Below, in pieces: positions 9,391-42,927 of a stretch of DNA of 64,000 nucleotides. How positions within the stretch are numbered: the first letter of the stretch is position 1; each line of letters begins with the position of its first letter. Origin of the DNA: Malacoraja senta (taxonomy: Eukaryota); assembly GCA_038087875.1 (NCBI GenBank), contig CM075989.1, positions 20,586,001-20,650,000 of the forward strand, written 5' to 3'. Below the pieces are notes generated by a model that worked only from the letters and a program-made list of their open reading frames with translations, ran no database searches and was not told the DNA's origin. The position numbers and the translations under genes are program-made.

Positions 9391-9889
9391 GACATGTACC
9401 GAGGTACAGTGGAAAGCTTTTTGGTGCTAACCAGTCAGCGGAAAGACAATAAATAATACAGAGGTACACAAAAATGCTGGAGAAACACAGCGGGTGCAAC
9501 AGCATCTATGGAGCGAAGGAAATAATACAGAGTGTGCATATTTTATATTCTTTCCCCCACACATCTAGGGCACTGGTGGACATTTGAAATAAGTGAATAA
9601 ACATTAAAATAGGAACCCATATTAACACAGGCAACAGCTGTACATTAATGCCTCAGGTGATAAAAACCTATAGAGGTCCAGGAAACTACATGTGCTGGAA
9701 TCTGGAGCAAAATAGTAACTGCTGGAGGAATTCAGTCGGTCTGTGAAGGGAATGGAGGGGCAACGTTTTGGGTCAGGACCCTTCTTAACTCTGAAGAAGT
9801 GTCCCCAACCTGAAACATTGTCTGCCCATTCCATTTTTCAATATTTACTTGATTTGCATAATTTAACATTTTAACCTACAGATAAAACA

Positions 9890-10125: not shown

Positions 10126-11477
10126 AGCAAACAAGGGGAAAGATCTTAACTAGTGTTTGTGATAGCTTCCACTAATGAGGGAAGGGTGGATGCTCATGTT
10201 CTTGCTGAGGCAAGTGCAAAACAATGGACAGAGTAAACATAGTAAAAGCAGAAGTATTATCTTTGGAAACTGACTTGGGTGAAATATATCCACGGTTTTA
10301 AAATAGTAAGGGTGGAAAATAGCATTGACGGCAATTTTTCCAATTCTTTATGGCTAACCTTCTACTGGGGTTTACTCCGAAATAAATAATTTACTTTTCA
10401 AGAGGGTGTTAGATATATAGGTCTTAGGGCTAACGGAATCAAGGGATATGGGGAGAAAGCAGGAACTGGATACTGATTTTCCATGATCATATTCATATTG
10501 AATGGTGGTGCTGGCTTGAAGGCCTGAATGGCCTTCACCTGCTCTTATTTTCTATGTTTCTATGGATCGGTGGAATTCATTCGTGGGTATTGCATACATC
10601 TTCATTTATAAAGATACTGATATATTTATAAAGATACTCAAGGCCAGGAAAGCTGGAGAGCTCTATTTTCCTCCATAGCCATGGACTGAACAACCTTCCA
10701 TGTTGATAATTGGAACTTTTGGATCTTGATGTGTTGGCAGGGGGAGCAACGTAGATTGATTTGGAATGCAGTGGAACCCAGGGATTAACAGAGCTGCACC
10801 CTCACCCTCTGAAGAAGTGACTGAGAGAAGTATGGAAGGCAGTGAAGAGGCAACTGTAAACTGATGATTAGATTTCACCAAGGACAGATTTACAACAACA
10901 AAATAAAGATCACTGGTTGAACATCTCAATGTGGAAACAAGGAAATGCAGATGCTGGTTTCCAACACAAAGACGCAGAGATCTGAAGTAACTCAGTGGGT
11001 CAGGCAGCATCCCTGGGGAATGTGGATAGGTAGAGTGTAGAAAGGAACTGCAGATGCTAGTTTATACCGAAGATGGAAACAAAATGCTGGAGTAACTCAG
11101 TGGGTCAATCAGCATCTCTGGAGAAAAGGAACAGGTGACGCTTTGGGTCGGAACCCTTCTTCAGACTACTTCTGAAGTCTTCAGTCTGAAGAAGGATTCT
11201 GTCCTGAAACGTCACCCATTCCTGTTCTCCAGAGATGCTGCCTGACTCCAGCATTTTGAGTCTATCTTCATGGATAGGTCAAGGTTTTTTTTGACAGGCA
11301 GATTGTTGGACTAAAGCCAGATATGGAAAATCAAGATGCAAGGCAAAAGTTCGACATCTCCATATTGGACAGATACGTGGATTGGAAGGGTTTAGTGGGC
11401 CAAATGCAGGCAAATGGGACTAGCCCAGTATGTCAACTTGGTCGGCCTGGACTAGGTGGTCCGAAGGGCCTGTTTAT

Positions 11478-11890
11478 AAGTTCTAGCAGCAGAATTAGGC
11501 AAGTCGGCACATCAAGTCTACTCTGCCATTCAATCATGGCTGATCTATCTTCCCTTCTCAACCCCCTTTTCCTGCCTTCTCCTCTTAACCCCTGTCACCT
11601 GTGCTAATCAAGAATCTGCCAATCTCCGCTCTAAAAATATCCATTGACTTGGCCTCCACAGCCGTCTGTGGCAATGACTGCCACAGATTCACCACCCTCT
11701 GACTAAAGAAATTCCCCCTCATCTCCATTCTAAAAGTACGTCCTTTTATTCTGAGGCTGTGGCCTCTAGTCCTAGACTCTCCCACTACTTGAAACACGCT
11801 CCCCACATTCATTCTGTCCAGGCCTTTCATTATTCGATAAGTTTCAATGAGGTCCTTCCTCATCCTTCTAAACTCCGGTGAGTACTGGCA
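11478..11890 (-). mobile_element. CR1-clade LINE 3' fragment
   Basis: EFRRMRKDLIETYRIMKGLDR...SRTRGHSLRIKG...FFSQRVVNLW. Confidence 0.85.
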
Positions 11891-13119
11891 GAGTACGGGA
11901 GTTTCTGGACTCTTGATATTTAAAGAACTTAAAAGCAGTTGGTGCCGCATCAGCGAACTGTAGGGTGTGAGTGCACGGAAGGGTGGAGTAGTTGGTGAGA
12001 AAGAACTCGGCGTATATTTAGTTCAGTACATGGCCTCTCACTGCCTCTTAAACTGATCAAAGGCTTTGTCACTGGATGTAGCAATGCGAATGCTGTTCAT
12101 GGAAAGAATGCTTCGGAGCTCCATGCAATGGCCAAGTGGCTGATTTTGAATGATGGAAAAGGGTTGGTTGTGGTGGAAAAGGCAAGAATATTAAAGTTTG
12201 CTCGATTACTTTTCGGCGCTCGTGTACTCGATAAATTGTTCCATTGGGCGATTTTAAAATAGGTGTGAAAGGCTCCGTGGCTTTACGTCAGCGTGAAGCA
12301 TTTTGACTATGCATCAGAGTGAAAGTTGTAATCTAACTCGGGTCAGGTTACGGTCTGACTGTGGACATGGTAACGCTGAGAAGAAGCATGCCTCGGCTCC
12401 GGAAGATGGCAAGTCATTCCAACGTGCTTAGGTCATTGAAATGATCTCCCCTCCAACTTATGTGCTTAGTACTGAGCTTTCTGAGCCCAGCTGCCTATCA
12501 AACAAGCCTCCCTCACCTGTATCCACCTATCACTCTCCAGGCTTTGTCCTGCTGATCCTTTCTTCCAGCTTTCTCTCCCTCTCCACCCCCCACCACAATC
12601 AGCCTGAAGAAGGGTCCCCACCTATCTATGTTCTCCAGAGATGCTGCCTGACGTGCTGAGTTACTCCAGCACATGGTGTCTTTTTTTGTAAACAAGCGCA
12701 TGCAGTTCCTTTTTTTTCCCTTGCCAGCAATGTTGTTTTGTGTAAGGGTAGAATTTTAGTAGCAGTGGCCCGACTTATAATTGAGTCTCGCTGGTTACAG
12801 TTCTTCAGACTGCCATTCATGCTCTTAGACTACCAACATAACACAATGCAACTGGCACGAACACGCATTGTTACAGGAAAAATATCAAAAGCTGAAGCAA
12901 GGTATTTGTTTCCTCATGAGCCAACGTTACATTTCAAAGGATTTGGCAATGGTCTGTGAAAATACCGTAAATGGTTTAAAGTATAAATTCATAGGAATGT
13001 CTTGTGCCAAATTATGAATTTATTGGTAACCAACTTGGATTGAGTTATAGGTATCAGTACAAATTAAATATAATTTGCAGTTTTTACTGGCAACACCCAA
13101 TAAACACAGTTGCCCGGGC

Positions 13120-14420: not shown

Positions 14421-15126
14421 ATGAACTCGGCAGGTCAGGCACCATCTGTGGAGGGAATAGACACAATGTTTCTGGATGGGACCCTTGGCTCCTGACCCGA
14501 AATGTCACCTGTCCATTCCCTCTACAGAAGCTGCCTGACCTGCAAGTTCCTTCAGCCGTTTGTCTTTTGCATGTTACCCGAGGTTTGGCAGACATGAATC
14601 ACTGGAAGAGATGAAACAGAAAAGTTGACACCCTTTTAAATATTACTTGCAAACGCCATAAAAGAAGTTTAACTCATGCATTGTGCAATATAGATTGGAA
14701 TATTTTCATCGGAGGTCCTTTTGCCAATGAAACATTTACTGGTTTAGTGTCTATCCCTGAATATTCTGATATCTAACTCCACAAGCACATAGAAACAAAA
14801 ATGTCGTGATTTCTTGTTAACTGGCAGTGTTTGAATGAGCATGGAATTGTTCTACTTCCTGATAGAGACATCAGAGCATCTTTCAAAATGATTCTACTTA
14901 AGTTATGGGAAAGGCCAGTTGTAATCCTGCTTGTTGATGATTATGGAGTGTGTAAGTTCTGTTATCAGAGCAAAAGCAGTTTTTATGTTCAAAAACCGGT
15001 AATCTCACATAGAATGATTATTGATGCATTGTACGGTCATGTTAAGTTGAGAGTTGCTGACTTAAATAAAGGATTCTCCGGATTCATAGTTCTATTCATT
15101 TGCTGACACAAGCAGCAACATGGTAT

Positions 15127-15308
15127 TTAAGAAGGAATTGCAGATGCTGCAAAATCGAAGGTAGACAAAAATGCTGGAGAAACTCAGCGGGTGCAGCAGC
15201 ATCTATGGAGCGAAGGAAATAGGCAACGTTTCCCAGGAAACGTTGCCTATTTCCTTCGCTCCATAGATGCTGCTGCACCCGCTGAGTTTCTCCAGCACTT
15301 TTGTCTAC
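15127..15308. mobile_element. Penelope-derived fold-back hairpin insertion
   Basis: Near-perfect inverted arms of about 74 bp with a 2-nt loop. TSD cagcaacatggtat at 15113 and 15309. Confidence 0.88.
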
Positions 15309-15929
15309 CAGCAACATGGTATCTAGATGATCGAATGTACTGCAGTCTTATAGTGAGCAGGGTTGGGGTCTATTTCCTCACTGTCCTCCAATTTTCACAG
15401 GGATGTTGTTTTACTTCTGCTGTGATGCTGATGGTATATTTAATTGAAGGTAGCTGCTGGCCTAATTAACAGAATCATTGAGAAGGTCACGAGTGCATTG
15501 GTGCAGGTGCTGAGCCTTTCAGCACATAGTAATCTTCCTACCGAATGTCAAAACTAAAATCTCTTTTATTTGAATTACTTCTGTCCATTTACACAACACA
15601 ATGGGGGATAAAATGCTCTCCATACAACAAGGTAATGTCCCTATGTTTACGTTTTAAACCTTCACTCTTTCACATCAGTGCCTATTGTAATTTAGCCGCA
15701 ATTGTAGTGGTAGCTTATATTGATAAACCTGTAAGTAGACAAAATGATCTGTGTAATCCCAATAATCCATTGGTAATTTTATTGCATGATCCCTTTTATT
15801 TGTTCTCTTCCTTGAATAAGTTGCGCCACACTTGCTGAAATAACACCAGCAAATAAAGAGAATGTCTGAAAGAAATTAAAAAAACATTGGCTTTTTTTCC
15901 CCCCTTACAATATTATGCTGTTTCTAAGT

Positions 15930-16405
15930 TGTAGGAGCAGAATTAGGCCATTCAGCTCATTATGTCTACTCCGCCATTTCATCGTGGCTGATCTATCTCT
16001 CCCTCTCAACCCTATTCTCCTGCCCTCTCCCCATAATCCCTGACACTCATACTAATCAAGAATCTGTTTAATGTGTTGCAATGGCAATCCACATTTCGCT
16101 ACCCCAATTGGTGTATGTGTCAAATAAAGAACCTTTGAACCTTTGACTCTATCAATCTCCACCTTAAAAAGATATCCATTTACATGGCCTCCACATGGCA
16201 ATGAATTCCACAGATTCACTGCCTTTTGACTGAAGAAATTCCTCCTCATCTCCTTTCTAAAGGTACTTCCTTTTATTCTGAGGCTATTGCCTCTGGTTCT
16301 AGACTCTCCCACTAGTGGAAACATCCTCGCCACATTCACTCTAACCAGGCCTTTCACTGTTTGGTAAGTTTCAATGAGGTTCCCCCTCATCCTTCTAACC
16401 TCCAG
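15930..16405 (-). mobile_element. CR1-clade fragment
   Basis: MRGNLIETY...MFPLVGESRTRGNSLRIKG...NFFSQ. Confidence 0.8.
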
Positions 16406-17412
16406 CCGCTGTATTGAGCTTCAGTGCATGCACCGTGCAGTTTCTGTGCAAGGTGATGTGATTGTACATTGTGACTCATCGTAGTCCTGATCTCTTCATG
16501 CTGCCGATGGTGCCACTGTTCTTGAGCCAGTGCAGGGCAAAGCAATCAAGTTTATTTCTATTTCTCATTGTCTGAAACATTGAAGATAGAACAATACAGC
16601 ACAGGAGCAGGCCACTGTCTATGACAATAGGTGCAGGAGTAGGCCATTCGGCCCCTCGAGCCAGCACCGCCATTCAATGTGATGATGGCGGATCATCCCC
16701 ACTCAATGCTGAGCACGATGCCAGGTTGAACTAATTTCTGATTCCACATCAATGCTATTGAATTAAATAACATTTTTAATCTTGCAATGGCTGTGACATG
16801 TTGATGGGATTCTGAAAAAAAGTGGTTATAGGAAGATTTGGATAATTTAAACACCTAATGACTCTTGGAGTCTAATAGCATTTATGTTGTTCCAATCAGT
16901 TGTTGTATAGCAATAACTGACCTAAAGGTTACAGGGAGAAGACAGGCGAATGGGGTTGACAGGGAAAGATAGATTGGCCATGATCGAATGGCAGAGCAAA
17001 CTCGATGGGCCGAATGGCCTAATTCTGCTCCGATGTCTTATGTTCTAAATGATAGTTAAATACATAAGCTGGTAATATTTGTTCATGTACTTGGAATATT
17101 TTTTTCAGAATAAGTTTAAAACTTTGAATGATATCAAAACTAAAATTAATGAAGTCGAGTCATTTTCCATAACATTGGGCTTGTTAACATGGCACTTTAT
17201 CCAGCTGGATTGTGAAGTGTTCACTGATTAATCAGCTTATTGTCATGGCAGATTAAAGGAGAATAGGATGAAGAAAGATGTCCTGGTTTCTGGATGTGAC
17301 TGAAGGTCAGTTTATTTACCAGGGACAGATAAGAGGGTCAGTTTTAAAGCGTTGTGGACAGGGAGAGATGGATTTAAAAAAAAACAGAATTAAATAATCT
17401 AGACTTGATGTT

Positions 17413-17612
17413 NNNNNNNNNNNNNNNNNNNNNNNNNNNNNNNNNNNNNNNNNNNNNNNNNNNNNNNNNNNNNNNNNNNNNNNNNNNNNNNNNNNNNNNN
17501 NNNNNNNNNNNNNNNNNNNNNNNNNNNNNNNNNNNNNNNNNNNNNNNNNNNNNNNNNNNNNNNNNNNNNNNNNNNNNNNNNNNNNNNNNNNNNNNNNNNN
17601 NNNNNNNNNNNN
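17413..17612. other. Assembly gap
   Basis: Exactly 200 N. Confidence 1.
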
Positions 17613-17721
17613 TCATGGCTGATCATCCCCAATCAGTACCCCGCTCCTGCCTTCCCCCCAAATCCCCTGACTCCGCTATTTTTAAGAGCCCTGTGTAGCT
17701 CTCTCTTGAAAGCTCTCTTGA

Positions 17722-18130
17722 CTCCATTTATACATCACGTTGCCTCGGCAAGGCCAGCAGCACAATCAAGGATGAGTCGCACCCTGGCCACTCCCTCTTC
17801 TCCCCTCTCCCATCAGGCAAAAGGTATAGAAATGTGAAAACGCACACCTCCAGATTCACGGACAGTTTCTTCCCAGCTGTTATCAGGCAACTGAATCATC
17901 CTACCACAACCAGAGAGCGGTCATGAACTACTATCTACCTCATTGGTGACCCTCGGACTATCTTTGATCGGACTTTACTGGCTTTACCTTGCACTAAACG
18001 TTAATCCCTTACCATGTATACACTGTAAACGGCTCGATTGTGATCTTGTGTTGTCTTTCCGCTGACTGGATAGCACGCAACAAAAGCTTTTCACTGTACC
18101 TCGGTACACGTGACAATAAACTAAACTAAC
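17722..18130 (+). mobile_element. Rex1/Babar-type LINE 3' fragment
   Basis: ...HPGHSLFSPLPSGKRYR...RFTDSFFPAVIRQLN-like translation and tail tgacaataaactaaac. Confidence 0.75.
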
Positions 18131-19474
18131 TGTGATAAAGATTAACTGGAAATGAAAATAAATAAATGCTGTGACAGGTTGTATTTGTCTGTGTCGCATG
18201 TGATATATTTGACCAACAACTCTGACATGTTATTGGGTTTATCTGAATATAACTTAATTTCAATTGATTAACCATCTGAACCGACCTACTCTTGTACCGT
18301 GTGTGTACTTATGATCAGGGCTTGGTTGCTTTTGTGAGGTATTTGATTTGTAATTGAGGACAATAGTAGAACAATATAAAATTGTTCATCAATTATTTAC
18401 TTACGTTGGGAAAAATGCCCAAACCAATTAAATAACCTGTTTCTGGCTCTGTGTCCACATTGTTGCTTGTGCCAAAATCAATTTCCAGTTTAGAAAAATG
18501 CCTTTCCTTGTATATTAAGTTTCTGTTCCCCTTCCAGCTATTCTGTCACTTTTATTTTAACCCTGCCCATATTCTCTGATGTACATTTTCTTTTCTCACA
18601 ATAAGTGAGTGTTAGGATTGAACAAAATGTGCCCTAGTATCATTCCAAACCTCTCTCATTAAAATAAATTTAATTTGTCTTTTTTTTTTTAACCATTTAT
18701 TTTTTACACTAGAAAAAGAAAAGATTGAAAGAAAGAAGAAAGTGAAGGAAAAAGTGAAAGTGTAGAAAATGTGACAACAAAAAAGGACGAAGACCCTATA
18801 AGAGCAAAATTAAAAAACAAAAGAAAAAGAGTTAAGAGATAGACCCTAGAAAAGAAAGAGAAAGAGAAATTTGAACTGAAATTCAACAAAATCAATCACC
18901 AAACGGAGAATAAGTAGAAATACTTACAAAGCCATGAAATCTTTTGGAAACGCAAGGACGTTCTGAGCAAAACACAAAGTGCTGGAGAAACTCAGCGACC
19001 CTCTGAGTTCCACCAGAACTTTGTGTTTTGCTGTAAATCCTTTGGGCTGTTCTTCACAAGTTCACAAGTTATCGGAGTAGAATTAGGCCATTCGGCCCAT
19101 CGAGTCTACGCCATTCAATTATGGCTGATCTCCTCCTAATCCCAGTTTTCTGCCTTTTCCCAGAACCATTGACATGGGTTCTAATCAAGAATTTGGCTAT
19201 GCCTTAACAATATTCACTGACTTGGTCTCCACAGCCCTCTGTGGCAATGAGTTCCACAGATTAACTACCTTCTGACTAAAGATGTTCCTTCTCAACTCCT
19301 TTATAAAAAATGTGCCCTATAATTCTGAGGTTATGACCTCTGGGTCCTAGACTCTCTCACCGGTTCTTGAACGGTCTGTGGAGCAGTATTCAATTCTGTT
19401 GCCCAAATAAAAACTTGGTATTTCTACTTTGTTCTTTTTGAGCAGTTTGGACTTGCGCCCATATTTCTTCTTCA

Positions 19475-19602
19475 TGTTTAAGAAGGAACTGCAGATGCTG
19501 GAAAAAAATCAAAGGTAGACAGAAATGCTGGAGAAACTCAGCGGGTGAGGCAGCATCTATGGAGCGAAGGAATAGGTGACGTCTCGACCCGAAACGTCAC
19601 CT
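19475..19602 (-). mobile_element. Short Penelope-derived insertion with small fold-back
   Basis: TSD atatttcttcttca at 19461 and 19603. Confidence 0.8.
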
Positions 19603-21149
19603 ATATTTCTTCTTCACCTCATCTAACTTTTGAGCATTTTTTTGCATTGTGATCGACTAACTGCCCAAAACTGCCATCCTTCTAAATTAGGTTCTGGGTC
19701 ACTTTGCCACCTTGCAGAGAGTTTAGATAAAGTGAATGCTCAGTCTTTTACCCAGGGTGGAGGATTAAAAAAACTAGAGGGCATAGGCTGAAGGTGACAG
19801 GGGAGAGGTTTAAGAGGAACCTTTTCACTCAGAGGGTAGACTGTATCTGGGATGAGCTGGCAGAGTAAGCAATATAATTACCATTTTTGAAAGACATTTG
19901 AACAGATACATGAATAGGAAGGGTTTAAAGGGCTGGGGGCCAAATGCAGGCAAATGGCATTAGCCCAATAGGCCAACTTGGTCAGCATGGCCCTGTGTCT
20001 GCATTCTCTCTGGCAAAAGGGAAGTCGGGTCAAAGGTTTGCTTTGCATCTTGACCTGGACTCCTACATAGAATGTATCTTGTCTGTTACATTGACAGTTG
20101 TTCACAATTCCATTATGCTACAGTTTATTAACATCACAGAAATGTGGTGTTGCAAGCGTGCCGTTGAGATCGACAGCAGTGAAGAAGTCCCTGTGAGATG
20201 TAATTATTTTTTGTTGCTGGTTGTTAATAAATGTTAGTTGAACTTGCTTTGGCTGAAGAAGCTGATGAACAGTGAACAATAAAAACGGCCATTGGGTTCC
20301 TCGTCAGTGATGTAGAAACAAGGAACCGCAGATGCTGGTTTACACGGGAAAGACAGAAACGGCTGGAGTAACTCAGCGGGTCAGGCAACATCCCTGGAGA
20401 TCCTGGGTGGGTGACATTTAGGATTGGGACCCGAAACGACTTGTTTGGTAGGGTCCCGACCTGAATCATCACCTATCCATAGGCAGACACAAAATGCTGG
20501 AGTAACTCAGTGGGTCAGGCAGCACCTCTGGAGAAAAGGAATGGGTGGCGTTTTGGGTCGAGACCCTTCTTCGTACCGAGGGTCAGGGGAGAGGGAAGCT
20601 TGAGGTATGAAAAGATGCAAAAAACAAATAAATGAAAAGAATAAATCAAAGCCACCACTGATGATCTTTGACCTTTGATTGAAGGAATAGGCGACGTTTC
20701 GGGTCGAGACCTTTCAGAAGGGTCTCGACCCGAAACGTCACCCATTCCTTCGCTCCATAGATGCTGCCTCACCCGTTGAGTTTCTCCAGCATTTTAGTCT
20801 ACCTTTGATTTTTCCAGCATCTGCAGTTCTTTCTTAAACATTTGTTCTTTGATTTGTTGTTTTCATACCTTTCATTCATTGGTTCTCCAGTCTTTTTTGT
20901 CTTCTCTTCAGTGTTGCTTTTTAATTGGAAGTCCCACTAGTTATCCTTTTGGATATGTACTTTTTTAAAAACATAGATGTAGTTAGTGCATATTGAGAAT
21001 GTCCAAACATCAGGGGGAGGTTTCAGCTGTGGTAGAGTTACACCAAATGCTCAGGAGTAGAGAAGAAAATCAGGTAAGTTTACAAGGTTTGGCCGCTCCA
21101 GTACTACCCAAGTTTGCACTGTGTGTTAGTACTCGATTACAGTGTATAT

Positions 21150-21550
21150 CCCCTTCCATCGAGGGGATCTATCGCAGTCGCTGCCTCAAAAAGGCTGGCA
21201 GTATCATCAAGGACCCACACCATCCTGGCCATACACTCATCTCCCTGCTACCTTCAGGTAGAAGGTACAGGAGCCTGAAGACTGCAACGACCAGGTTCAG
21301 GAATAGCTACTTCCCCACAGCCATCAGGCTATTAAACTTGGCTCGGACAAAACTCTGAACATTAATAGCCCATTATCTGTTATTTGCACTTTATCAGTTT
21401 ATTTATTCATGTGTGTATATATTTATATAAGGGTATATGGACACACTGATCTGTTTTGTAGTCAATGCCTACTATGTTCTGTTGTGTTGAAGCAAAGCAA
21501 GAATTTCATTGTCCTATCAGGGACACATGACAATAAACTCTCTTGAATCT
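21150..21550 (+). mobile_element. Rex1/Babar-type LINE 3' fragment
   Basis: PSIEGIYRSRCLKKAGSIIKDPHHPGHTLISLLPSGRRYRSLKTATTRFRNSYFPTAIRLLN, then 3' UTR ending tgacaataaactctcttgaa. Confidence 0.85.
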
Positions 21551-23139
21551 TAAATGTGGGTAGGAAGGAACTGCAGATGCTGGTTTACACCAAAGATAGA
21601 CACAAAATGCTGGAGTAACTCAGCGGGACAGGCAGCATCTCTGGAGAGACGGAATGGGTGACGTTTCGGGTCGAGACCCTTCTTCACATCTCCATCCGAA
21701 ACATCACCCATTCCTTCTCTCCACAGATGCTGCCTGTCCTGCTGAGTTACTCCAGTTTTTTGTGTCTGCAGCGTATAAATAATCAGCTCCACAAATGCCA
21801 TTCAGAAACCCACTGATTTTTTTTTTTAAACATGAACTTATTTTTGGAAGCCAAGTAATCTGGATCAGTTTATTGAAGTGAAGGCTAAACTGAACTCTGA
21901 ATGGAGGCAGCGGGGGTGTGAGAGTGGAACACTTTCTGCTGTGTCAAAAGTTCAGGGCTTTTCCTCGCACTTTAAAGATTAGAGCTAAATCTCAAGTTGA
22001 TGTTTTTTTTCCTAAGAGGCTTTAAGTTTACGCTCTTTTGCTCTGCAGGCAGGTGTAACAGATTCTGTGGGACTGTTTTGAGGGGAAATCTGACGGAAGT
22101 AGATGAAATTATGAGAGGCACAGATAGGGTGGACAGTCAGAACCTTTCTCCCAGGATGGAAATATCAAATACGACAGAGCATAGATTTAAGATGGGAGGG
22201 GAACAGTTTAAAGGAGATGTGCAGGGTAAGGTTTTTTTTTAAAGAGAGGGTGATGGGTGGCTGGAGTGTATGGTGGCAGGGTGGTGGTAGAGGCACTTGA
22301 TATGGTGGCATTTATGAGACTTTTAGATAGGCATATGAATGAATATGCAGGGAATGGTGGGATATGGGTTATGTATAGGTAGATAAAGAGTTGGTCTTGG
22401 CATCATGTTCAGAACAGACATTGTGGGCCGAATGGCCCGTTCCTGCGCTCAATGTTCTAAGACCAGCAGAGTAGCCAAAGTGTCCTGACCAATCTAATAA
22501 CAAGGAACTGCAGATAGAAACAAAATGCTGGAGTAACTCAGCGGGACAGGCAGCATCTCTGGAGAGAAAGAATGGGTGACGTTTCGGGTCGAGACCCTTC
22601 TTCAGACTGATCAAGGAACTGCAGATACTGGTTTATACCAAAGATAGACGCAAAATGCTGGAGTAACTCGGCGGGTCAGGCAACATCTCTAATGCTGAAA
22701 GTAGATAGGTAAAGTTTTAGGTCAGTCTTAAGAAGGATCCCGACCTGAAACATCATCTATCCAAGTTCTCAAAGGATGCTGCCTGACCCGTTGAGATACT
22801 CCAGCATTTTGTGTCTATCGCTGGTGTCCTACCCTATATTTATTATACAATCGACATCTAGTTCTTTCTGACATCTGCAGCTTTTTATTTTTGCTTTTCA
22901 CTTTCTGACTCGGACTTCTCCTTTTGCAATGCTGTTTGCTGGCAGAAGTCGGATCTAGGAAAAGCCCTGATGCTCAGCAGCTTTGGTGTCATGAATCATA
23001 CTGAGCAGGTGCATTAAATAATCCTGATACACCATGCCGGGAAGATCTAAATGAATGCTCCCAACTTTTTACAGGGTGCAAAGAAGAGATTGAAATGGCC
23101 ACACATGAAAAAAACGGAAATATCAGAAAACTGCGATTT

Positions 23140-23425
23140 AGTTTAGAGATACAGCGTGGAAACAGGCCCTTCGGCCCACCGAGTCGCCACCGACCAGCGA
23201 TCCCTGCACACTAACACGATCCTACATGCACTAGGGACAATTTTTACAATTTTAACAAGGCCGATTAACCTGTACGTCTTTGGAGTGTGGGAGGAAACAG
23301 GAGCTCCCGGAGAATGCCCACGCAGGTCGCAGGGAGGACGTACAAACTCCGTACAGACAGCACCCTTAGTCAGGATTGAACCAAGGTCTCTGGCGCTGTG
23401 AGGCAGCGACTCTACCACTACGCTT
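23140..23425 (-). mobile_element. HE1-like V-SINE (tRNA head, CR1-derived tail)
   Basis: Reverse complement has gctgcctcacagcgccagagacc..ggttcaatcc head, V-domain-like gtttcctcccacactccaaagacg and tail gggccgaagggcctgtttccacgctgtatctctaaac. Confidence 0.8.
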
Positions 23426-24289
23426 CCGTTCCTTCTGTTCCCATCTTCATTCAGTTATTTGCCTTAAAATCACATAAAATATGCTTATGGAACTAATGTT
23501 TGGTATAAAGGTATACTAACTAAGACAATAGAAGGTTGTACTCCCTCACAGCATCAATGATGTCAGTATTCCACAGTCTTTAACTCCTTATTGATGAAAT
23601 GTTGTCAAGGTTCACGGAAAAAGATCATGGAAAAAGAACCCTTAATAAAATGCACTTTTGGTAAAAGGCAGCAATATTTCGTGCCAATATATTTTCAATC
23701 AACTTTCAAACATTAACATTTCCTAAATGTTGATACTGTTTTTGCTTTAGTTACTTCCTCTGTTTGGAGATGAAAGGAGATGAGGGAGAACGGCTTTAGT
23801 CGGAGGGCGGTGAATCTATAGAATTTATTGCTACAGAAGGTTGTGGAGGACAAGTCAGTAGACATTGTTACGGTGGAGATAGATAGATTCTTGATTAGTA
23901 AGGGTGTTGGGGTTATGGGGAGAAGGCAGTCAGAGAAGGAGAATGGGGTTGAGAGGGAAAGATAGATCAGCCATGATTGAATGGCGGAGTAGACTTGATG
24001 GTCTATTTGTGCTCCTATAACTTATGAACTTATGAATTTCATACCTTTTGTTTAAAAAAAAAAAGCAAACTTCTTAAGCTTTATATCCTAAGTCTTCCAA
24101 GGCTTCAATCCCCTCATTTGGCACTTCCCAACATCCAAACAGATTTGTTTCCAAATACTTTGTAACAATGTTTTTATAATATAAATTATCTTAAAATCTT
24201 CTCTGCTGCAATCTAACACCTTCAGTTATTTTATTGATTGTGTTCCATCAAATCAATCCTCCCGCATCTGCGTCACCTCAATACCAAAA

Positions 24290-25160
24290 CATCAAAGCAA
24301 TCATAAAGAAAGCTCGTCAATACTGCTTTTCTCTTCTTGAGGAGATCTGGTATGTTGCCAAACACACTATTGAGTGTCTACTGGTGTCTGGGAGGCAGGG
24401 AGCATACTGACTGGTTGCATCACGGCCTAGTTCGGTTACTTGAAAGCCCAGAACAAAGAAGGCTGCAAAACTTGGTCAACATTGCCCGGTCCATCGCACA
24501 TACTGTCCTCCTCGCTATCCAAGGGATCTACAGGAAGGCAGCTTATATCATCACAGACCCACATCACCCAGGCCATGCTCTCATCTTGCTGCCTGAGAAC
24601 CGTTCCTACAGCTTCAAGAACAGCTTTCCAGCAACGATCAGCCACTTGAACGTAGCCCAACACTAACCATAAACCTATCCCAGCATCTAGTCAAGTCAAG
24701 TCAAGTCAAGTCACATTTATTTATATAGCACATTTAAAAAACAACTCTCGTTTGGCAAAGTGCTTTACATTTGTTATAAGAATAGCACAACAAAACAAAC
24801 TACATACATATATACATGTAGCCCTCACTCAGAGGACGTCAGGAAAGGCTTGGGAGTATAGATAAGTCTTTAGTCTTGACTTAAAAGAGTCGATGGAGGG
24901 GGCGGTTCTGATGGGAAAGGGGATGCTGTTCCACAGTCTAGGTCTACTGTGGACTTTGTTTTCAGTTGCTCTATGGATTTAATTTTTACTTTGCGCTATT
25001 ATGGTCTGGTTACCTTGTATTACTGATTATTAACTTATTATATTATTGATTATTGTATCTTTAATGTGTGTGAATGTCCCTGTAAAGCTGCAGCAAGTGA
25101 GAATTTAATTGTTGCATTGTTGGTGAATGTAACAATTAAACACTCTTGAATCTCTTGACT
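24290..25160 (+). mobile_element. Degraded Rex1/Babar-type LINE fragment with nested L2 tail
   Basis: IITDPHHPGHAL...SFKNSFPATISHLN. The 3' UTR resumes after 24942. Confidence 0.7.
24689..24942 (-). mobile_element. L2-clade LINE 3' end
   Basis: Minus-strand PRLWNSIPFPIRTAPSIDSFKSRLKTYLYSQAF..*, tail tgtaaagcac...gtgctatataaataaa and (CTTGA)n. Confidence 0.8.
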
Positions 25161-25365
25161 TGTGTTTAAAGCAGGTTTATTTTCTCTGCCACTGAGCATT
25201 CATTTCAGATTTAATTTGTTCTGTTGTCCATAAGATTAATAGAAAGGGCTGTGAAGTTTCTTGAAGTAAGTTGGCACTGTAAATATTTGTTAGTAAGTCA
25301 GCATTGTAAATATCTTTTCAGGTGAATGCATGCATCATCATTGTTATTCTTGTTATTTACACTAG

Positions 25366-25500
25366 GCTTTAAAAGAGGAAATAAGCTGAGCACGCCTGAA
25401 GGAAGATAGTTGAGGAGAGAAGGTTCTACCATGCACTAGAACATTAAGTACTGACAAAGCTACAATTCCACGCTGATATATTGGAAAAGGAACGGTGAAG
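25366..25500 (+). other. MEF2A: 5' UTR portion of the ATG-containing MEF2 exon
   Basis: Acceptor-like ttgttattcttgttatttacactag| ending at 25365, followed by purine-rich exon-like sequence up to the ATG. Confidence 0.6.
25431..25439 (+). promoter_or_regulatory. Minimal upstream ORF (ATG CAC TAG) in the MEF2 5' UTR
   Basis: ctaccATGcactag with A at -3, 70 nt upstream of the main ATG. Confidence 0.55.
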
Positions 25501-25554
25501 ATGGGGCGGAAAAAGATTCAGATTACAAGGATCATGGACGAACGCAACAGACAG
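25501..25554 (+). CDS. MEF2A: MEF2-family transcription factor, first coding exon (MGRKKIQITRIMDERNRQ)
   Basis: Translation gives the canonical MEF2A/C N-terminus. The 54-nt phase-0 exon ends CAG|gtaaga. Start context gtgaagATGG. Confidence 0.95.
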
Positions 25555-25662
25555 GTAAGAGCACGGGTTGTGGAACTGTGTGGAATGGGTGTCCGTATCC
25601 TTCACACCTCGTCTTCCAAGTCACCCAACATCCAAACTTGAGCACACATTGTTGTCACTTCA

Positions 25663-25870
25663 GTTGCACAAAACACAAAGTGCTGGAGGAACTCAGCGGT
25701 TCAGGCAGCATCTGTGGAGGGAATGGACAGATGATGCTTTGGGTCGGGGTCTGAAGAAGGGTCCCAACCCGAAATGTTATCTGCCCGATCCCTCCGCAGA
25801 TGCTGCCTGACCTACTGAGTTCCTCCAGCACTTTTTTGTTTTGCTCAGCATCTGCAGTTCCTTGTGTCTC
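25663..25870. mobile_element. Penelope-derived inverted-arm insertion about 110 nt downstream of the ATG exon
   Basis: TSD tgttgtcacttca at 25650 and 25871, with a core-like motif at 25751. Confidence 0.8.
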
Positions 25871-26871
25871 TGTTGTCACTTCATTGTTGGTTCAACCTGC
25901 TGGAACTCTAAAAGTAATGGCTAAACTCACGGAGAGTTGCAGGGGGTTTCTGAAGGCGGCTCACCAACACATCCCAAGAGCATTTAGGGATGAACAACAA
26001 ATGCTGGCCTTGTCGACGTGGATCCAATGCCATGAATGAACTTTAAAAAATGAAAAGGTGATACTGGGCTGGTAAATGTGGCTCTGATATCATCAGTGGG
26101 TTCATATTCATGTTTACCATGCCACCACACCTAGCAACCAGAGGAAATATTTCCACTGATCTTTTAATAGCTGAAATTCAATATGGTGTGCGTCGCTAAT
26201 GATAACAAATTGATATTGCGTTATGCCTTATTCCTACCGGTAGCTGGATTTAGAGTCAGGCTTGCTGCGTTTTGCTCCTATGTACACAATCTTAAATATA
26301 CACAAAATGCTGGAGTAACTCAGCAGGACAGGCAGCATTTCTGGAGAGAAGGAATGGATGACATATCGAGTCTCGACCGGAAACGTCACCCATTCATTCC
26401 TTCTCTCCAGAGATACTGACTGTCCCGCAGAGTTACTCCAGCATTTTGTGTCTACCCTCGGTGTAAACCGGCATCTGCAGTTCCTTCCTATACAAAATCT
26501 TAATTCTGGTTTCTGAAGTGGCCTCAATTTCAAATTCATAGTTCAAATCTGATTTGTGACTGCAGTGCGAGTGCCACTCCATAAGTACGTTTTTTTTTGC
26601 CATTAATTTGATTAAATATATATTCATGTTTTTGTAATAGAAAGCTGTCCAGGGGAGGTGTGCACCAATAATTTGCAGAATTAACTCTGTAAATCCTCTT
26701 ATTCTGCCAGTGCACAATTTAATATAAAAGCACAGAACTTCTTAATTCTTTAAATATGGGGCTGCAACAGTACATCATTACTTTTATTCCTCTGCTGGAA
26801 TAGCTGTACAAACAACACTGAGTTTGTGTACCTTTCATCTTTCCTTCACCAGCTTTGTGTTGTGAACTGTT

Positions 26872-27045
26872 CAAGAAGAAACTACAGATGCTGGAGAATC
26901 GAAGGTATGACAAAATTGCTGGAGAAACTCAGCGGGTGCGGCAGCATCTATGGAGCGAAGGAAATAGACCCGAAACGTTGCCTATTTCCTTCGCTCCATA
27001 GATGCTGCCGCACCCGCTGAGTTTCTCCAGCAATTTTGTCATACC
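26872..27045. mobile_element. Penelope-derived fold-back hairpin insertion
   Basis: Identical inverted arms. TSD ttgt(g/a)ttgtgaactgtt at 26855 and 27046. Confidence 0.88.
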
Positions 27046-28551
27046 TTGTATTGTGAACTGTTATGAGTTGCACCGCTGAACATTTAATTAAAAAAAATTT
27101 AATTATCTATTTTGAAAATAAAGTACTCCAAATGTTCCAAATTGTATTAACCTTCCCTGATAGATTGGCACATGTCACACACTGCACCAAAGTTGCATTC
27201 CTTTGAAATCTGTGTTGGGTTGATTGATTTTGTGTCACACGCACCAAGTTACTTTTTCTCCAGAAATGCTGCCCGACCTGCTGAGTTACAACTGCACTTT
27301 GTGTCTATCTTTGATATAAACCAACATCTGCGGTTCTTTGTTTTGAATGTAAAATCTTTTGTTTGGCTGCTATCCAATTAAATCAGATCGTACAATGGCA
27401 TCGTACAGAAGTAAAACACTTCGTCGAGAGTCATACAGCGTGGAAACAGGCCCTTCGGCCCAACTTGCCCTCGTCAACCAACAGGTCCCATCTACACTAG
27501 TCCCACCTGCCTACGTTTGGCTCATTTCCCTCTATCTGTCCACATATATTTGAAGCATAGTGATACTACCTGCTTCAACTGGCCAGTTCATTGGCCAGTT
27601 CATTGGCTATATTTAAGAGGGAGTTAGATGTGGCCCTTGTGGCTAAAGGGATCAGGGGGTATGGAGAGAAGGCAGGTACAGGATACTGAGTTGGATGATC
27701 AGCCATGATCATATTGAATGGCGGTGCAGGCTCGAAGGGCCGAATGGCCTACTCCTGCACCTATTTTCTATGTTTCTAACTACTTCATCCAGCAGTTCAT
27801 ACCCAATACCTACCACTCTTATTATTTTTTTTTTAATTTGCTCCTCGGGTTGTTATTAAATCCTTTCCCATCCCCCTCACCTTAAACCTATGTCCTCTGG
27901 TTCTTGAACTAGGATTCAAGAACCATACTCAAGAGTAGTAGTGCTCAAGTGACAAATAACAGAGTATGGAGATTATGGAATGGAGATTTAGAAGAGTGGA
28001 GTGATTGTATTAGAGGATAGCAGATCCTAATGTGGGATCAGCACATAGAGTTGCCACACTCAGGCAGGCAGCAAGTCCTCTATTGGGACCTGTGTAGGAA
28101 AGAACTGCAAATGTTGGTTTAAATCGAAGGTAGACACAAAATGCTGGAGTAACACAGCGGGACAGGCAGCATCTCTGGAGAGAAGGAATGGGTGATGTTT
28201 TGGGCCGAGACCCTTCTTCAGACTGAATTGGGATGTGTCCTATTCTCTGACATGTTGTTTGAACCTGCATTCTACATTTCTTCCTCATTACACCTCAGCT
28301 GCTACATACAGTAGGCAATTCTGCTGCTTCAGCTGGGAAATCCTTCTTATCCTGGCCGTTTTGTAGCTTTCTGCAGTCTCCTATGCTGGAGTTCCTGGGG
28401 TGAAATTTTGTTGGCCCACAGTTGCCTCTTGTCTGAGATGGACAATTTAGGATTTTCTCCATACGGTACCAAACCCTAATGGCATCTGTTTCAGAAGGAT
28501 GCTGAATCACAACATAGGGACATTGTTCTGTAGGTGAAATTAAATCTGAAT

Positions 28552-28684
28552 TAAGTCTGAAGAAGGGTTCCGACCCGAAACGTCAACCATCCCTTTTCTC
28601 CGGAGATGCTGCCTGACCCGCTGAGCTACACAGCACTTTGTGTCTATCTTTGGTATAAACCAACATCTGCAGTTACTTTCCTCT
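28552..28684 (+). mobile_element. Short Penelope-derived insertion with intact hammerhead-like core
   Basis: CTGAAGAAGGGTTCCGACCCGAAACGTC at 28557-28584, flanked by aaattaaat(c/t)tgaat duplications. Confidence 0.75.
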
Positions 28685-30211
28685 AAATTAAATTTGAATC
28701 CTGACAGTGGAACTTGGTTTAGGAGCTCAGGATTCTGAAGCTAGAGTCAGAGGTGTCCTTTAACATCATTGATAAAAGTAACGTTGAAATACAGATTTAT
28801 CTATTTAGAGTTGATAGAAGCAATCAGGATACCAGCTGCAAAATCAATGGTGTTCAAAGGGATCTTGTGTTCTTGTGATGATCAGAAAATGACTTTCAAC
28901 GGCTGACTATTTAGTTGTAAATAACTGTCACAACGAAGCTACTACAAAAAGCTGAAAATGTTTTGTATTTTTGAATCCCGAGTTCCACTGTATTTTGTAC
29001 TTTGAGCAAGCAGAATTAGGGAGGCGCAAGAAACTGCAGATTGAGCAGAAAACAAAAGACTGGAGCTGGACACAAAGCTGGAGTAACTCAGTGGGACAGG
29101 CAGCATCTCTGGATGGAAGGAATTGCCGTTGTATCGATTCCAGACCCTTCTTCAGATTGAAAAAGGGTCTCGACCTGAAACATCACCCGTTTCTTCTATC
29201 CAGAGATGCTGCCCGTCCCGCTGAATTACTCCAGCATTTTGTGTATCTTCCATGTAAACCAGCATCTGCAGTTCCTTCCTACACAAAAGGCTGGAGCTAT
29301 TCAGCAGGTCAGGCAGCATCAGTGGGGGGAATGGACAGACAATGATTCGGGTCAAGTTCCTGATGGTGTAGGAGGGAGAAAGCTGGAATAGTGAGTGTCT
29401 TTGGTGTGTTACACTGGCTTCGTTACTACTAACCAAACAATGTTTTTAATACATAGTTTCTTCAAAGACTATTTCAGCAAAGATTAATGTCCGTCTGAAC
29501 CCAATAGCTAGTTTGATGAAAGTGGAGTCTGAAGAAGGGTCCCGACCTGAAATGTCGCCTATCCACTTTCACCAAAGATGCTGCCTGACCCGCTGAGTTA
29601 CTCCAGCACTTTGTGTCTATCTGTGGAGACTGGAAACTTGAGCTTGCATCTTGGTGATGCAGCGGCATGACTTTCAAGGGGCAGTGGCACAGAATGAGAG
29701 GGAGATTGGGAGGGTGGCCTTTTTTTTTTTACTATAGAGCACGATATCTATGGGACAGCATTACAGAATGTCTAGAAAGTGAAAGGAGACTTGTGGAGAC
29801 AGCTAGGCCCCAAAAGTACCCAGGCAGTGCCATTTTTAAAGGTGCAAGGAGCAGATGATACAACTCTGCACTTGTTATTTGTTGACGTAAAGGAAACGTC
29901 AGCAGCTCTGCAGATTGACTGCTGGCCAAGTCTAGCTCAGATCACGAACGTGGGCGTGAAGGGACTGACAGTGTGCCTGGCTCGCCTCCATTTTTTTTCC
30001 CTCTTTCTTAAAATAAACTAAGGCGGGGGAATTCCCATTGGGAAATCCAGAGACCGAACAAGATGGACATTCCTATGGCAGATCAATAACCATATGCCAG
30101 AAATAACAAATTAAAGCAAAATAGTTGGGAACAAGTTTGGATATGTGTAGGATGCTGAATGAGCAGAAACCTGACCAATTCATAAAATGGACAACATATG
30201 ACAATGAATTA

Positions 30212-30386
30212 TGTGTAAGAAGGAACTGCAGATGCTGGTCTACACTGAAGATGGACACCAAATGCTGAGTGACTCAGCGGGTCAGGAGCTCAGTCTGATG
30301 AAGGTTCTTGACCCGAAACGTCACCTATTCCTTTTCCCCAGAGATGCTGCCTGACCCACTGAATTACTCCAGCATTTTGTGTCTAT
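30212..30386. mobile_element. Penelope-derived inverted-arm insertion with CTGATGA core
   Basis: TSD tgacaat(g/a)aatta at 30199 and 30387. Core at 30295-30322. Confidence 0.78.
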
Positions 30387-31478
30387 TGACAATAAATTAA
30401 ACTACTTTATCCTATTGAGAGGAAAAATTGGTTTCCAGAATAATATGATTAATCAACCTGTTTTGGGGAAAAATAGATTAAATGATAGTTGAAGTGAGGG
30501 AAATGGAGCCTTTACTTCTGACTGAGACACAAAGAACTGCAGATGAATCTTGAGCAAAACTCAACAGGTAAGGCAGCAGAGACACAAAAAGCTGGTTTAA
30601 CTCAGCAGGACAGGCAGCATCTATGGAGAGAAGGAATGGGTGACGTATTGGGTCAAGACCCTTCTTCATTCATGCAGCATCTCTGGAGAACATGGATAGG
30701 CGACATTTTGGGTTGGGACCCTTCTTGTGACCTTGGTACCAACCTGAAACGTCGCCTATCCATGTCCTCCTGAGATGTTGCCTGACCCGCTGACTTACTC
30801 CAACACTTTGTGATTTTTTTTCTATATTCATGACTTTTCTGTTTTGTGACTTTTATTTCAAGAAGGGATTTTTTTTTCTTAACCACAAATAAAATTTGGA
30901 AAGGGTTAACTAAATGCCAGTGAGATCCCGATGACAATGCTATGATGAAGTGTCAAAACTGGTTGAAACCATGTCCTGACTACAACAGGATAAGTCAGGC
31001 TTAGGTTGGACCTGAAATTCAAATTCAAAGATTAGTATTATCGGACTTGCGATGGTTTCCTGTGAGCTCCCACAGCAGGAGACTTGAAACTCTTCATTTA
31101 CACTCGCTATGTTACGGGCTGGTTCGCCCACCAGTCTGGATAAACCATGTGATGTCTGTACAAATATAATTGCATCCATTACATTTTGTTATTCTTAACA
31201 TATTTTGAAGTTATATTTATTGACTGGATTAATTGGTTTAATTCATAAGGGATGCAGTGGTGTAATTTTCCTGCAGATGATTTTTGACCATCTGGCCAAG
31301 CTGACACGACGGAGTGAGATTTATGCTGATCTGCCAAATTTTATTTAAAATATCTATGCGTTTGCAGTTTGCTCAGTTTTATGCCTGTTTTAACCTGCTT
31401 ATTGCAATTTGTTGGTCTACAAGAGTTCCAAAATGAGCGTAACACCAGGAGTTGGGTGAATTGTGGAATTTGTTAATT

Positions 31479-31876: not shown

Positions 31877-32559
31877 AGTGTTTCAGGGCTGCTGAGTACC
31901 TGGTTGCATTACCTGAGTGCTTGTGATCAGACACAGAAACAACCATAACTGTGCTCGCTCTGGAAACAAGGGCTTTGCACATTTCTTGGCCAACTTGCCC
32001 CTTCTTTTCAAAGCACTTGTTGCTATTTAAGTAAATGAGTCATGTTCTTATTTTTTTTAAATCCACATGACCTAATGGAACATTTCAAAATTTTGATGAA
32101 ACTGGATAAACGTGATCTAGAAAAAATATCTCAAAAGCTCAAAGCTTAGCTTGGATATTAGGAATGCAGCAACTAATTAGATTTAGACAGATGGACCATT
32201 TCATACAAAATTTAATCGACATATTAGACACTATTGATAAGGCTGATCAATCAAAAATGTTGTCTAGTTCAGCTTATATATTTCTGCAGAAAGAGGTGAC
32301 CATAGATATGTTAAGGAAAACATTGAAACCCTTAATTAGCAGATTGATAGTTGGGAGTGATGGAAATTACTGCAGAATTTATTTTGCTTTTTAGATTTGT
32401 TTTAGATAATTTATGTACTTATGGCTGATGTATTTTTCTAATGATGTTATCCAAAACCAAATGCGGATTAAATTTTAAAACAATTAGTTTCATCTATAGC
32501 AACATTTATTCTTACAGATGGCAAGGAATAGTTTTTGTAAGGCAGTACTTAAATTCTTA

Positions 32560-33151
<592 letters not shown>

Positions 33152-37907: not shown

Positions 37908-38093
37908 AGGTAGACAAAAGTGCTGGAGAAACTCAGCGGGTGCAGCAGCATTTATGGAGCGAAGGAAATAGGCAACGCTTCGGCCCGAGACGTTGCCTAT
38001 TTCCTTCGCTCCATAGATGCTGCTGCACCCGCTGAGTTTCTCCAGCACTTTTGTCTACCTTCGATTTTCCAGCATCTGCAGTTCCTTCTTAAA
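37908..38093. mobile_element. Penelope-derived hairpin nested in a minus-strand HE1-like SINE
   Basis: TSD cacacaaagtcta at 37895 and 38094, with inverted arms. Confidence 0.85.
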
Positions 38094-41668: not shown

Positions 41669-42692
41669 ACTTCTCTTTGTTACGGGCATAAAGTAACAAC
41701 AGAGAAATAATGGCCTTGGGGATGGGGGGATATAGTTCAGATTGAACAGAATGGAGCTGGAATTGAAGAAGATGAGATTCATAAATCCATTAGTTTAAAC
41801 GTCCGAGGGGAAGGTTGTTGAAAGTAATAAGGAGATTTGACAGAACATTTATAGGGACAATTTGTCCTCTCGAAGGAATTCGGAACAAAGTGGCGCAATC
41901 CTAAAGTTCCTTTGGCAGCAAAATTTGCTCACACTTTGATTACACAACTATAGTGGAAATCTGAAATACGGTTCTCCTAAAGTCATGGATTTTGGGTTAA
42001 ATGATTTGGAATTTTGGAATTTGGATTTGATGGATGTTTAGTTTATTGTCACGTATACTGAGGTACAGTGGAAAGCTTTTGATGCGTGAAAACCAGTCAG
42101 TGGAAAGACAATACATGATAACAATCGAGTCATCCACAATGTGCAGTTACATGATAAAGGGAATAACGTTAAGTGGAAAATAAAGCCTGTAAAGTCTTAT
42201 CTCTTTCTATTGTAACAAGGCTCTTCGGCCCAATTTCCCCGCGCCGACCAACATGCCCCATCTACACTAGTAGATCTTTAACGAGGCAGATAGTAGAATA
42301 GATCAGGTCTTTAATGAGGTAGATGGTAGCTCAGGGCTGCTCTATAGTTGTTGGTAGGATGGTTCAGTTGCCTGATAAAGAGCTGGGAAGAAACTGTCCC
42401 TGCATCTGGAGGTGTCAAAGAGGAAGGCAAGAACTGGGAGCAGGACTAGGACATTTGGCTCTGCCATTCAATATCATATTGTACAAAGATCACTGCATAA
42501 TGAATACCAAGGAAGCACCAATTGCCACCATTCAGGGGGATTTACACCAATGTATCATATTGAGGCAGAGAGGAACCGTGATATCAGTGCGTGTCTATTC
42601 AAGTTTAAAAGGGTCCAACCCTTCTCTTGCATGTATCTTCACATTATGTTAGAATACAGGGAAAATGTTTGAGATGCAGAGCTAGATATTTC

Positions 42693-42927
42693 TGTGCAGG
42701 AAGGAACTGCAGATGCTGGTTAATACCGAAGATAGAGACAAAATACTGGAGCAACTCAGCGGGACAGGCAGCATCTCTGGAGAAAAGGAATAGGTGACGT
42801 TTTGGGTCGGAACCCTCCTTCATACTTAGTCTGAGTCTGCAGAATGGGTCCCGACCCAAAACGTCACCTATTTATTTTCTCCAGGGATGCTGCCTGTCCC
42901 GCTGAGTTGCTCCAGCATTTTGTGTCC
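42693..42927. mobile_element. Penelope-derived fold-back hairpin insertion
   Basis: TSD agctaga(t/c)att at 42680 and 42928, with inverted arms. Confidence 0.8.

Follow-up and report, generated by a model that had tools for sequence, protein, structure and literature searches.

Within a 64,000-nt stretch of Malacoraja senta DNA (contig CM075989.1, positions 20,586,001 to 20,650,000; hereafter the window, with coordinates counted from its first letter) we found about 74 matches to a repeat of roughly 95–140 nt. Judged by its sequence features, this repeat is the pseudo-long terminal repeat (pLTR), or 3′ end, of a Penelope-like element (PLE) with a C-terminal endonuclease (EN) and a Neptune-type linker. 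Fifteen adjacent head-to-head pairs of the repeat form hairpins flanked by target-site duplications (TSDs), and the two arms of a hairpin were very probably both made at insertion from one source. We give about an even chance to twin priming, in which both target nicks prime reverse transcription from two start sites, and favour it over the self-primed fold-back of nascent complementary DNA (cDNA) that a first-pass annotation of the window had proposed.

Between the two copies of the 17-bp TSD, the insertion at 26855–27062 contains, in order, an arm of 96 nt, a loop of 14 nt and an inverted arm of 64 nt. The left TSD copy (26855–26871, + strand) is followed by the tail-bearing arm on the − strand, the first 32 nt of which (26872–26903) have no partner in the short arm. 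This unpaired 'tail', the 3′ end of the PLE RNA, shows four differences from the copy at 56849. The paired portion of the same arm (26904–26967, −) ends 3 nt downstream of the inferred cut site of the hammerhead motif described below. The loop (26968–26981, +) runs in the direction of the tail-less arm and is part of the hammerhead helix II/III region. The paired portion of the tail-less arm (26982–27045, +) is identical to its sister at 64 of 64 positions and stops at the tail-less terminus, which is fixed in this family, with 2 nt of microhomology to the TSD, whose right copy (27046–27062, +) has one mismatch. Contigs of four public runs were aligned to 14900–30600; among the matches listed, single contigs from two other, related organisms (D and B; runs X11 and X2), both about 5% diverged in the flanks, fuse position 26854 to 27046 and hold one TSD copy only. 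The 191 bp absent from this empty site are accounted for by the element itself (174 bp) and a single copy of the 17-bp TSD. Because the empty site carries a single TSD copy, the hairpin (referred to below as 26872; other hairpins are likewise named by a coordinate near their left end) is a true single insertion. An alignment gap at 26908 is uninformative on how common this insertion variant is, as older subfamilies align there without a gap.

Seven TSD-flanked elements with TSDs of 11–17 bp had been annotated, and all were located where described, with TSD scores of 7.5–14 against a null of 6.5 (the 95th percentile of 986 mismatched flank pairs). There proved to be more hairpins than these seven: a TSD is present in 15 of the 21 adjacent head-to-head pairs examined (p ≤ 0.04), with lengths of 8, 9, 11, 13, 14, 15, 16 and 17 bp. 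The TSD test failed for six adjacent pairs (14416, 21561, 22613, 30671, 48821 and 53740) and for three wider intervals; the failing pairs are left out of the 15, and five of them (30671 being the exception) are still among the 16 pairs whose arms are compared below. Inserts measure 128–240 bp, without an open reading frame (ORF), and 463 bp at 61498. Exactly one arm bears a tail in all 15 TSD-flanked hairpins, and the tail is 32–38 nt long in six young copies. A long arm with an inverted shorter arm was confirmed in all seven annotated elements, although the long arm is the right one at 4116 and 37908, and 61498 contains four extra 70-bp partial repeats.

Identification of the repeat as a PLE 3′ end draws on a 5′-truncated copy with the end of an ORF at 46669–47223 (+), which encodes a predicted GIY-YIG endonuclease of Neptune type. 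The ORF matches PF01541 with an E value of 3.8e-4 and 21.1 bits, just below the cut-off of 22.6, and has Atlas matches of 0.96 to GIY-YIG clusters. Its translation contains the CCHH residues as defined in PMC8557442, with two cysteines in the interval separating GIY from YIG and two histidines downstream. A C-X2-C-X2-C motif precedes GIY-YIG and the ORF terminates after the endonuclease, which fits the CX2-5CxxC linker of Neptune; no reverse transcriptase (RT) coding sequence was found in the window, and the Neptune assignment rests on the linker and the endonuclease motifs. The 3′ untranslated region (UTR) and pLTR of this copy occupy 47224–47445 (+), where the repeat begins in sense about 120 bp past the stop, includes a hammerhead motif at about 47345–47385 and ends near the tail-less terminus. 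A second 3′ UTR and pLTR, with a tail and without an ORF, lies at 62937–63263.

Our own descriptor of the minimal type I hammerhead motif, which combines the hammerhead core with the short helices of PMC4209133, gave nine matches, all within the repeat, compared with a mean of 0.02 in 50 shuffles. Rfam reported no hammerhead in the window at the gathering score or at E ≤ 10; single-strand folding gave no significant z-score, and the minimum-free-energy fold differs from the ribozyme fold. By the descriptor, then, the pLTR contains a hammerhead motif that is a candidate ribozyme. In most copies the start lies about 27–39 nt upstream of the inferred cut, where the ribozyme motif has its 5′ edge, with limits set in part by the BLAST queries, and 6 of 73 aligned copies start at +1 to +10 from the cut. 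These start classes may mark RT stops and the ends of cleaved RNA. As a main rule, control of the apex position by the cut site was set aside as unsupported, given that only those 6 of 73 copies begin just past it.

Within the window, the arms pair by locus. The mean distance between sister arms is 0.108, compared with 0.207 in permuted pairings, and none of 2,000 permutations was as low (16 of the 21 pairs, in which each arm covers 45 or more core columns). A rare allele, present in at most one other locus, is common to 4 of 16 sister pairs as against 77 of 2,262 non-sister pairs (Fisher p 0.002). In these sequences much of the closeness of sister arms is subfamily concordance, and the sharing of rare alleles goes beyond it. 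The tests of distance and rare alleles support the annotated view that hairpins are made at each insertion, and are not inherited from one palindromic master. In a tree of 68 arms built on 70 columns, the arms of 26872 group with support of 99/92 and those of 42693 with 94/89, and most others do not resolve. Nearest-neighbour pairing fails for most old hairpins, whose sister arms differ by 12–23% and are often not mutual nearest neighbours; this is expected because the arms decay separately. Clustering of arms by role across loci, which would favour masters, was not seen: no alignment column splits the arms into tail-bearing and tail-less ones (best p 0.09), and only in 18.5 of 32 cases do an arm and its nearest non-sister agree in having or lacking a tail.

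Individual variants point the same way. In this window gtaTgac, aaaTtgct, gtgTagc and ggagCaactc occur only in both arms of their own locus, so that four of the six variants annotated as copy-specific are private to a locus; the other two are common, gtgcGgc being found also at 61562 and acgttttggg, a CpG change, also at 4182, 9763 and 59288. Locus-private alleles are present in both arms at 26872, 42693 and 45056, although the 45056 arms, with one rare allele in common, are unlike at a segregating C/T site. At 4116–4210, the tail-less arm has six private differences, several at CpG, against one in the tail arm's paired portion, an imbalance that reflects either a different template or one-sided decay. 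The apexes, also annotated as differing between copies, are of at least 14 kinds among the 15 hairpins, over at least four subfamilies, and only those of 37908 and 61498 coincide, turning at the same near-palindrome. Variants would be shared under any mechanism in which one source is copied twice, and they therefore do not separate fold-back from twin priming.

Bearing on this point are the outer ends of the hairpin arms, which, counted from the inferred ribozyme cut, fall into two classes, +57 to +72 and +95 to +105; three tail-less arms (19475, 20681 and 30671) are much shorter than these classes. Six young hairpins and the solo copy at 9464 have tail-less outer ends that agree to within about 1 nt, and in all seven this end shows 1–4 nt of microhomology with the TSD. 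Nine of 31 solo copies have a TSD at p < 0.05, of which 4563 (intermediate end) and 10936 (where the match is a neighbour's tail) were set aside. TSD-flanked solos end at the tail-less terminus at 9464, 22517, 43105 and 57687, and at the tail-bearing terminus at 85, 28546 and 56849. Because partnerless, TSD-flanked solos end there too, the tail-less end behaves as a start of first-strand synthesis. Overall, 15 of the 31 solos are tail-less and 14 tail-bearing, whereas only 3 of the 21 pairs lack a tail (binomial p ~3e-4, with p set at 0.53). The occurrence of one tail per TSD-flanked hairpin, set against solos of which about half are tail-less, indicates coordinated use of the two ends.

The loops add to this picture. 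In 4 of the 15 TSD-flanked hairpins (4116, 19475, 26872 and 30212) the tail-less arm reaches 12–60 nt further inward, and in another four (25673, 26296, 45056 and 56134) the long, tail-bearing arm does so; at 37908 and 61498 one central base is informative and reads in the long arm's direction, and five are near-symmetric or unclear. An inward overhang on either arm is as expected of two independent cDNAs. The fixed microhomologous end, seen in solos as well, and the four loops on the tail-less arm lend support to the idea that the second arm is itself a target-primed first strand, although deletion at the apex after fold-back could mimic this. Among the arm–arm differences in young copies, 3 of 13 fall at two family-segregating sites (p ~0.005), a pattern compatible with separate RT passes or with hot spots; at such a site, 15127 and 45056 both carry T in the tail arm but C in the short one.

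Under twin priming, each hairpin would be a single insertion of an endonuclease-bearing, Neptune-type PLE, so severely 5′-truncated that only the pLTR end was copied. The GIY-YIG endonuclease would nick the two target strands 8–17 bp apart, the distance given by the observed TSDs, and each nick would prime reverse transcription, one at the start site at the end of the tail and the other at a site about 35 nt inside. Both primings would use the same RNA, or else a pair of RNAs, or tandem pLTRs, from a single source locus, and both arms would carry the private variants of the source because both copy it. The two cDNAs would stop independently after 20–140 nt and be joined head-to-head, often at complementary 3′ ends, that is, at the near-palindromes that lie in helix II of the hammerhead and immediately upstream of its core. 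Host repair would then fill in the second strands.

Self-primed fold-back, in which a tail-primed cDNA folds at a short inverted match and copies itself, we regard as possible but rather unlikely. The hairpin would be cut, or its synthesis would stop, about 35 nt before its start and be joined to the other target end, and later deletions would reshape the apex. Such a course accounts for the shared private alleles and for one tail per TSD-flanked hairpin, and it sits well with the 64 of 64 identical positions at 26872, with apexes that cluster at the element's own near-palindromes, with the central bases of 37908 and 61498 and with the four further hairpins whose loop is on the tail arm. It requires, however, that the short arm be a subset of the long one, so that 4 of the 15 hairpins, including the young 26872 and 4116, need an extra deletion of 12–60 nt in the tail arm. 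It also leaves as a coincidence that second-strand synthesis ends at the very base where solos begin. If about half of first strands start at that base, about half of the products should be tail-less, against the observed 3 of 21; and the T in the tail arm opposite the C in the short arm at 15127 and 45056 likewise counts against self-copying. The annotated mechanism is thus not borne out by the variants on which it was built, which fit any double copying, nor was the idea new, self-priming having already been proposed for the head-to-head palindromic junctions of PLEs in PMC3846280; the 'EN-mediated resolution' of PMC8557442 is likewise close to it.

Several points also weigh against twin priming. 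Our data come from a single 64-kb window, the apex limits of the arms were placed by hand, and solo ends were set by BLAST limits, so that some 'solos' are possibly unrecognised arms. Post-insertion deletions at the centre of a palindrome could give the two-sided asymmetry from a fold-back product. The apexes of 37908 and 61498 read exactly as snap-back of a tail-primed cDNA predicts, and a few bases in 45056 resemble a short snap-back. Classical twin priming in L1 yields segments that do not overlap, and arms that do overlap would require either strand displacement or a second template. The segregating sites may be mutation hot spots, one being a CpG and the other lying beside a T run with three alleles. 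Finally, the in vitro data come from another PLE clade and include no report of a start-site difference between the strands (PMC11167929), which leaves the one-sided tail unexplained.

Inheritance from palindromic masters, existing hairpins that are transcribed whole and retrotransposed as non-autonomous units, would explain the common apex of 37908 and 61498, the same T/C pattern at 15127 and 45056 and, through copying of the whole master, the fixed tail-less end. We consider it highly improbable as a general account, in view of the absence of any column that separates tail from tail-less arms, the near-even roles of nearest non-sister arms, the 14 or more apexes over at least four subfamilies and the locus-private alleles in both arms of 26872, 42693 and 45056. 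A minority of hairpins, to judge from the shared apex and the shared T/C difference, may be inherited in this way. Equally improbable is the alternative raised in the first-pass annotation, that arm-to-arm gene conversion (or cruciform repair) spread new mutations between the arms after insertion. The arms of 26872, with no unshared and three shared differences compared with 4 of 32 in the tail and 1 of 17 in the TSD, speak for it, and at this locus, taken by itself, conversion may have acted; a sum test (shared 1.6% plus unshared 1.5%, against 3.4% in the tail) fits conversion and no conversion equally. In six young copies, arm–arm differences (14 of 442) match TSD–TSD differences (3 of 83; p 0.74, with few events and low power), and the comparison is 69 of 506 against 5 of 85 in seven older copies and 87 of 996 against 8 of 190 in all, the TSD values being biased low by detection. 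TSD copies and arms were both identical at insertion and the arms are no more alike than the TSDs, so conversion is not general and is not needed to explain the shared variants; the divergence of old sister arms noted above also stands against it.

By the features tested, the hairpins are inverted-plus-tail PLE insertions. Such insertions in general comprise an inverted, 5′-truncated copy plus a tail of 30–40 bp, and Pen2a_Av has an inverted pLTR with a 31-bp tail and a 9-bp TSD (PMC8557442, PMC3846280); PMC8557442 invokes 'EN-mediated resolution' for their formation. Shared with the inverted insertions of EN-bearing PLEs are the head-to-head inverted pLTR, the one-sided tail, the variable TSD, the junction palindromes, the hammerhead in the pLTR and the C-terminal GIY-YIG domain. 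Unlike the published insertions, the window inserts consist of pLTR ends only and are dense, with 15 TSD-flanked hairpins in 64 kb, a density that makes a statistical comparison of arm pairs possible. For the Poseidon PLE of Anolis carolinensis (PAc), in vitro work showed that both target strands are cut and extended and that reverse transcription starts at two RNA sites bounding the tail, the protein being a predicted dimer; that study leaves the later insertion steps unvalidated (PMC11167929). The window family resembles PAc in its two fixed 3′ termini separated by the tail, its AT-rich targets and its short junction microhomology; it belongs, to judge by its linker, to a different clade, its ORF having the CX2-5CxxC motif missing in Penelope/Poseidon. 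The PAc start sites are not linked to inverted insertions in the accessible part of PMC11167929. In the literature searched, which excluded older Arkhipova/Evgen'ev reviews, the supplements of PMC11167929 and most subscription papers, we found no application of twin priming to PLEs, and the searches returned no paper on these repeats in cartilaginous fish.

The arms in the window overlap fully and the second site is fixed, unlike L1 inversions, which copy adjacent, non-overlapping parts of the RNA from a variable second priming site. The twin priming model for L1 5′ inversions was reportedly set out by Ostertag and Kazazian in 2001. As in L1 twin priming, for which intermediates are described in bioRxiv 10.1101/2024.12.14.628481, both target ends would be extended by RT and the cDNAs lie head-to-head inside one TSD. 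Like the non-LTR retrozymes of bioRxiv 10.64898/2026.07.22.740005, which are reported there from one chondrichthyan genome too, the inserts are non-coding, hammerhead-bearing PLE derivatives; unlike those head-to-tail tandem arrays, pairs in the window are head-to-head, with tandem pieces only at 61498 and 56822. Retrozyme identity was rejected for these inserts; the one array, at 61601–61944, has no descriptor match and its 70-bp unit lacks the CUGA core. Miniature inverted-repeat transposable elements (MITEs) and fold-back DNA transposons are short, non-coding, hairpin-forming, TSD-flanked and abundant. This class was rejected for the PLE hairpins, which have a tail of 32–38 nt outside the inverted repeat on one side and TSDs of 8–17 bp without a fixed length. 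Their ends are asymmetric, their centre varies and their sequence is that of a retroelement 3′ end. A different palindromic element, unrelated to the PLE repeat, lies at 32550–32889, with 149-nt arms that are 93% complementary and 42 nt apart, symmetric ends and AT-rich flanks; it has the look of a genuine MITE or of a fold-back DNA transposon.

The annotated hairpins other than 26872 are as follows. At 4116–4329 (tail on the right; TSD 4105–4115/4330–4340, 11 bp, no mismatch) the arms match at 79 of 86 positions and the tail-less arm reaches 12 nt further in. The arms of 15127–15308 (tail left; TSD 15113–15126/15309–15322, 14 bp, no mismatch) match at 72 of 73, with the single difference at a family-segregating site. 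The hairpin at 37908–38093 (tail right; TSD 37895–37907/38094–38106, 13 bp, no mismatch) has its apex at the helix II near-palindrome. The older one at 42691–42927 (tail left; TSD 42680–42690/42928–42938, 11 bp, one mismatch) has a rare allele common to both arms, and that at 45053–45259 (tail left; TSD 45039–45052/45260–45273, 14 bp, one mismatch) a complex apex with a repeated antisense piece. Tail-left as well, 61498–61960 (TSD 61484–61497/61961–61974, 14 bp, one mismatch) carries 4.9 tandem partial copies of 70 bp on its tail-less side. In this array (61601–61944), variants are common to units 1–2 and to units 3–4, which suggests, from sequence, stepwise tandem duplication; the array is possibly the seed of a PLE-derived minisatellite.

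Among the remaining TSD-flanked hairpins, older copies lie at 11032–11270 (tail left, 9-bp TSD), 26296–26490 (tail right, 13 bp) and 29068–29282 (tail right, 16 bp), and an old one at 25665–25870 (tail right, 15 bp) has a tail arm 14 nt longer inward. The tail-less arm measures only about 21 nt at 19475–19602 (14-bp TSD), where the loop runs in that arm's direction, and the short arm 35 nt at 20681–20846 (tail right, weak 8-bp TSD). At 30212–30386 (tail left, 13-bp TSD) the tail-less arm extends inward beyond the tail arm by about 60 nt, and at 56133–56316 (tail right, 8-bp TSD) the tail arm is about 60 nt longer inward. Solo tail-less copies include 9464–9519 (−, 13-bp TSD, no hairpin), 22517–22611 (−, 16-bp TSD) and 43113–43198 (+, 11-bp TSD). 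A short direct piece precedes a tail-bearing copy at 56822–56982 (+, 14-bp TSD) whose hammerhead motif is intact. The copy at 22517 sits, with its perfect 16-bp TSD (22501–22627), in the tail of another copy, and stacking beside tails is seen also at 10936/11034, 29069/29281 and 45056/45277, a hint that the element preferentially inserts into or beside its own tail. Pattern scans for further copies gave 23 candidate loci, rejected as chance since they match over at most 29 nt with little beyond the pattern; other such scans gave no matches. Reading frames at 45552–45971 (without a Pfam match), 50622–50993, 11585–12022 and 16052–16420 presumably resemble the C-terminal end of a CR1/L2-type long interspersed nuclear element ORF2. 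About 17412–17611 the assembly has a gap of 200 N.

The structure of these inserts and the idea that it forms at insertion are already known. What our analysis adds is a small quantitative case for one source per event, and it hints at a target-primed first strand as the origin of the short arm. Published accounts differ on the formation of the inverted copy with its one-sided tail, and offer self-priming (PMC3846280) and EN-mediated resolution (PMC8557442). Short hairpins, with both arms, the ends and the TSD readable within 200 bp, make the mechanism countable in an assembled genome, and structure-based annotation would misfile such inserts as MITEs. We propose, tentatively and at somewhat below even chance, that the universal 'inverted copy plus one-sided tail' of PLEs is a record of coordinated twin priming by a dimeric RT–endonuclease, with two fixed starts about 35 nt apart and the same RNA copied twice. 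If coordinated twin priming is true, hairpins made of pLTR alone, dense in these fish genomes, would amount to a large natural set of paired RT passes on single RNAs, from which the starts and stops of synthesis, the rules of joining, hot spots of RT error and an LTR-like insertion clock could be read.

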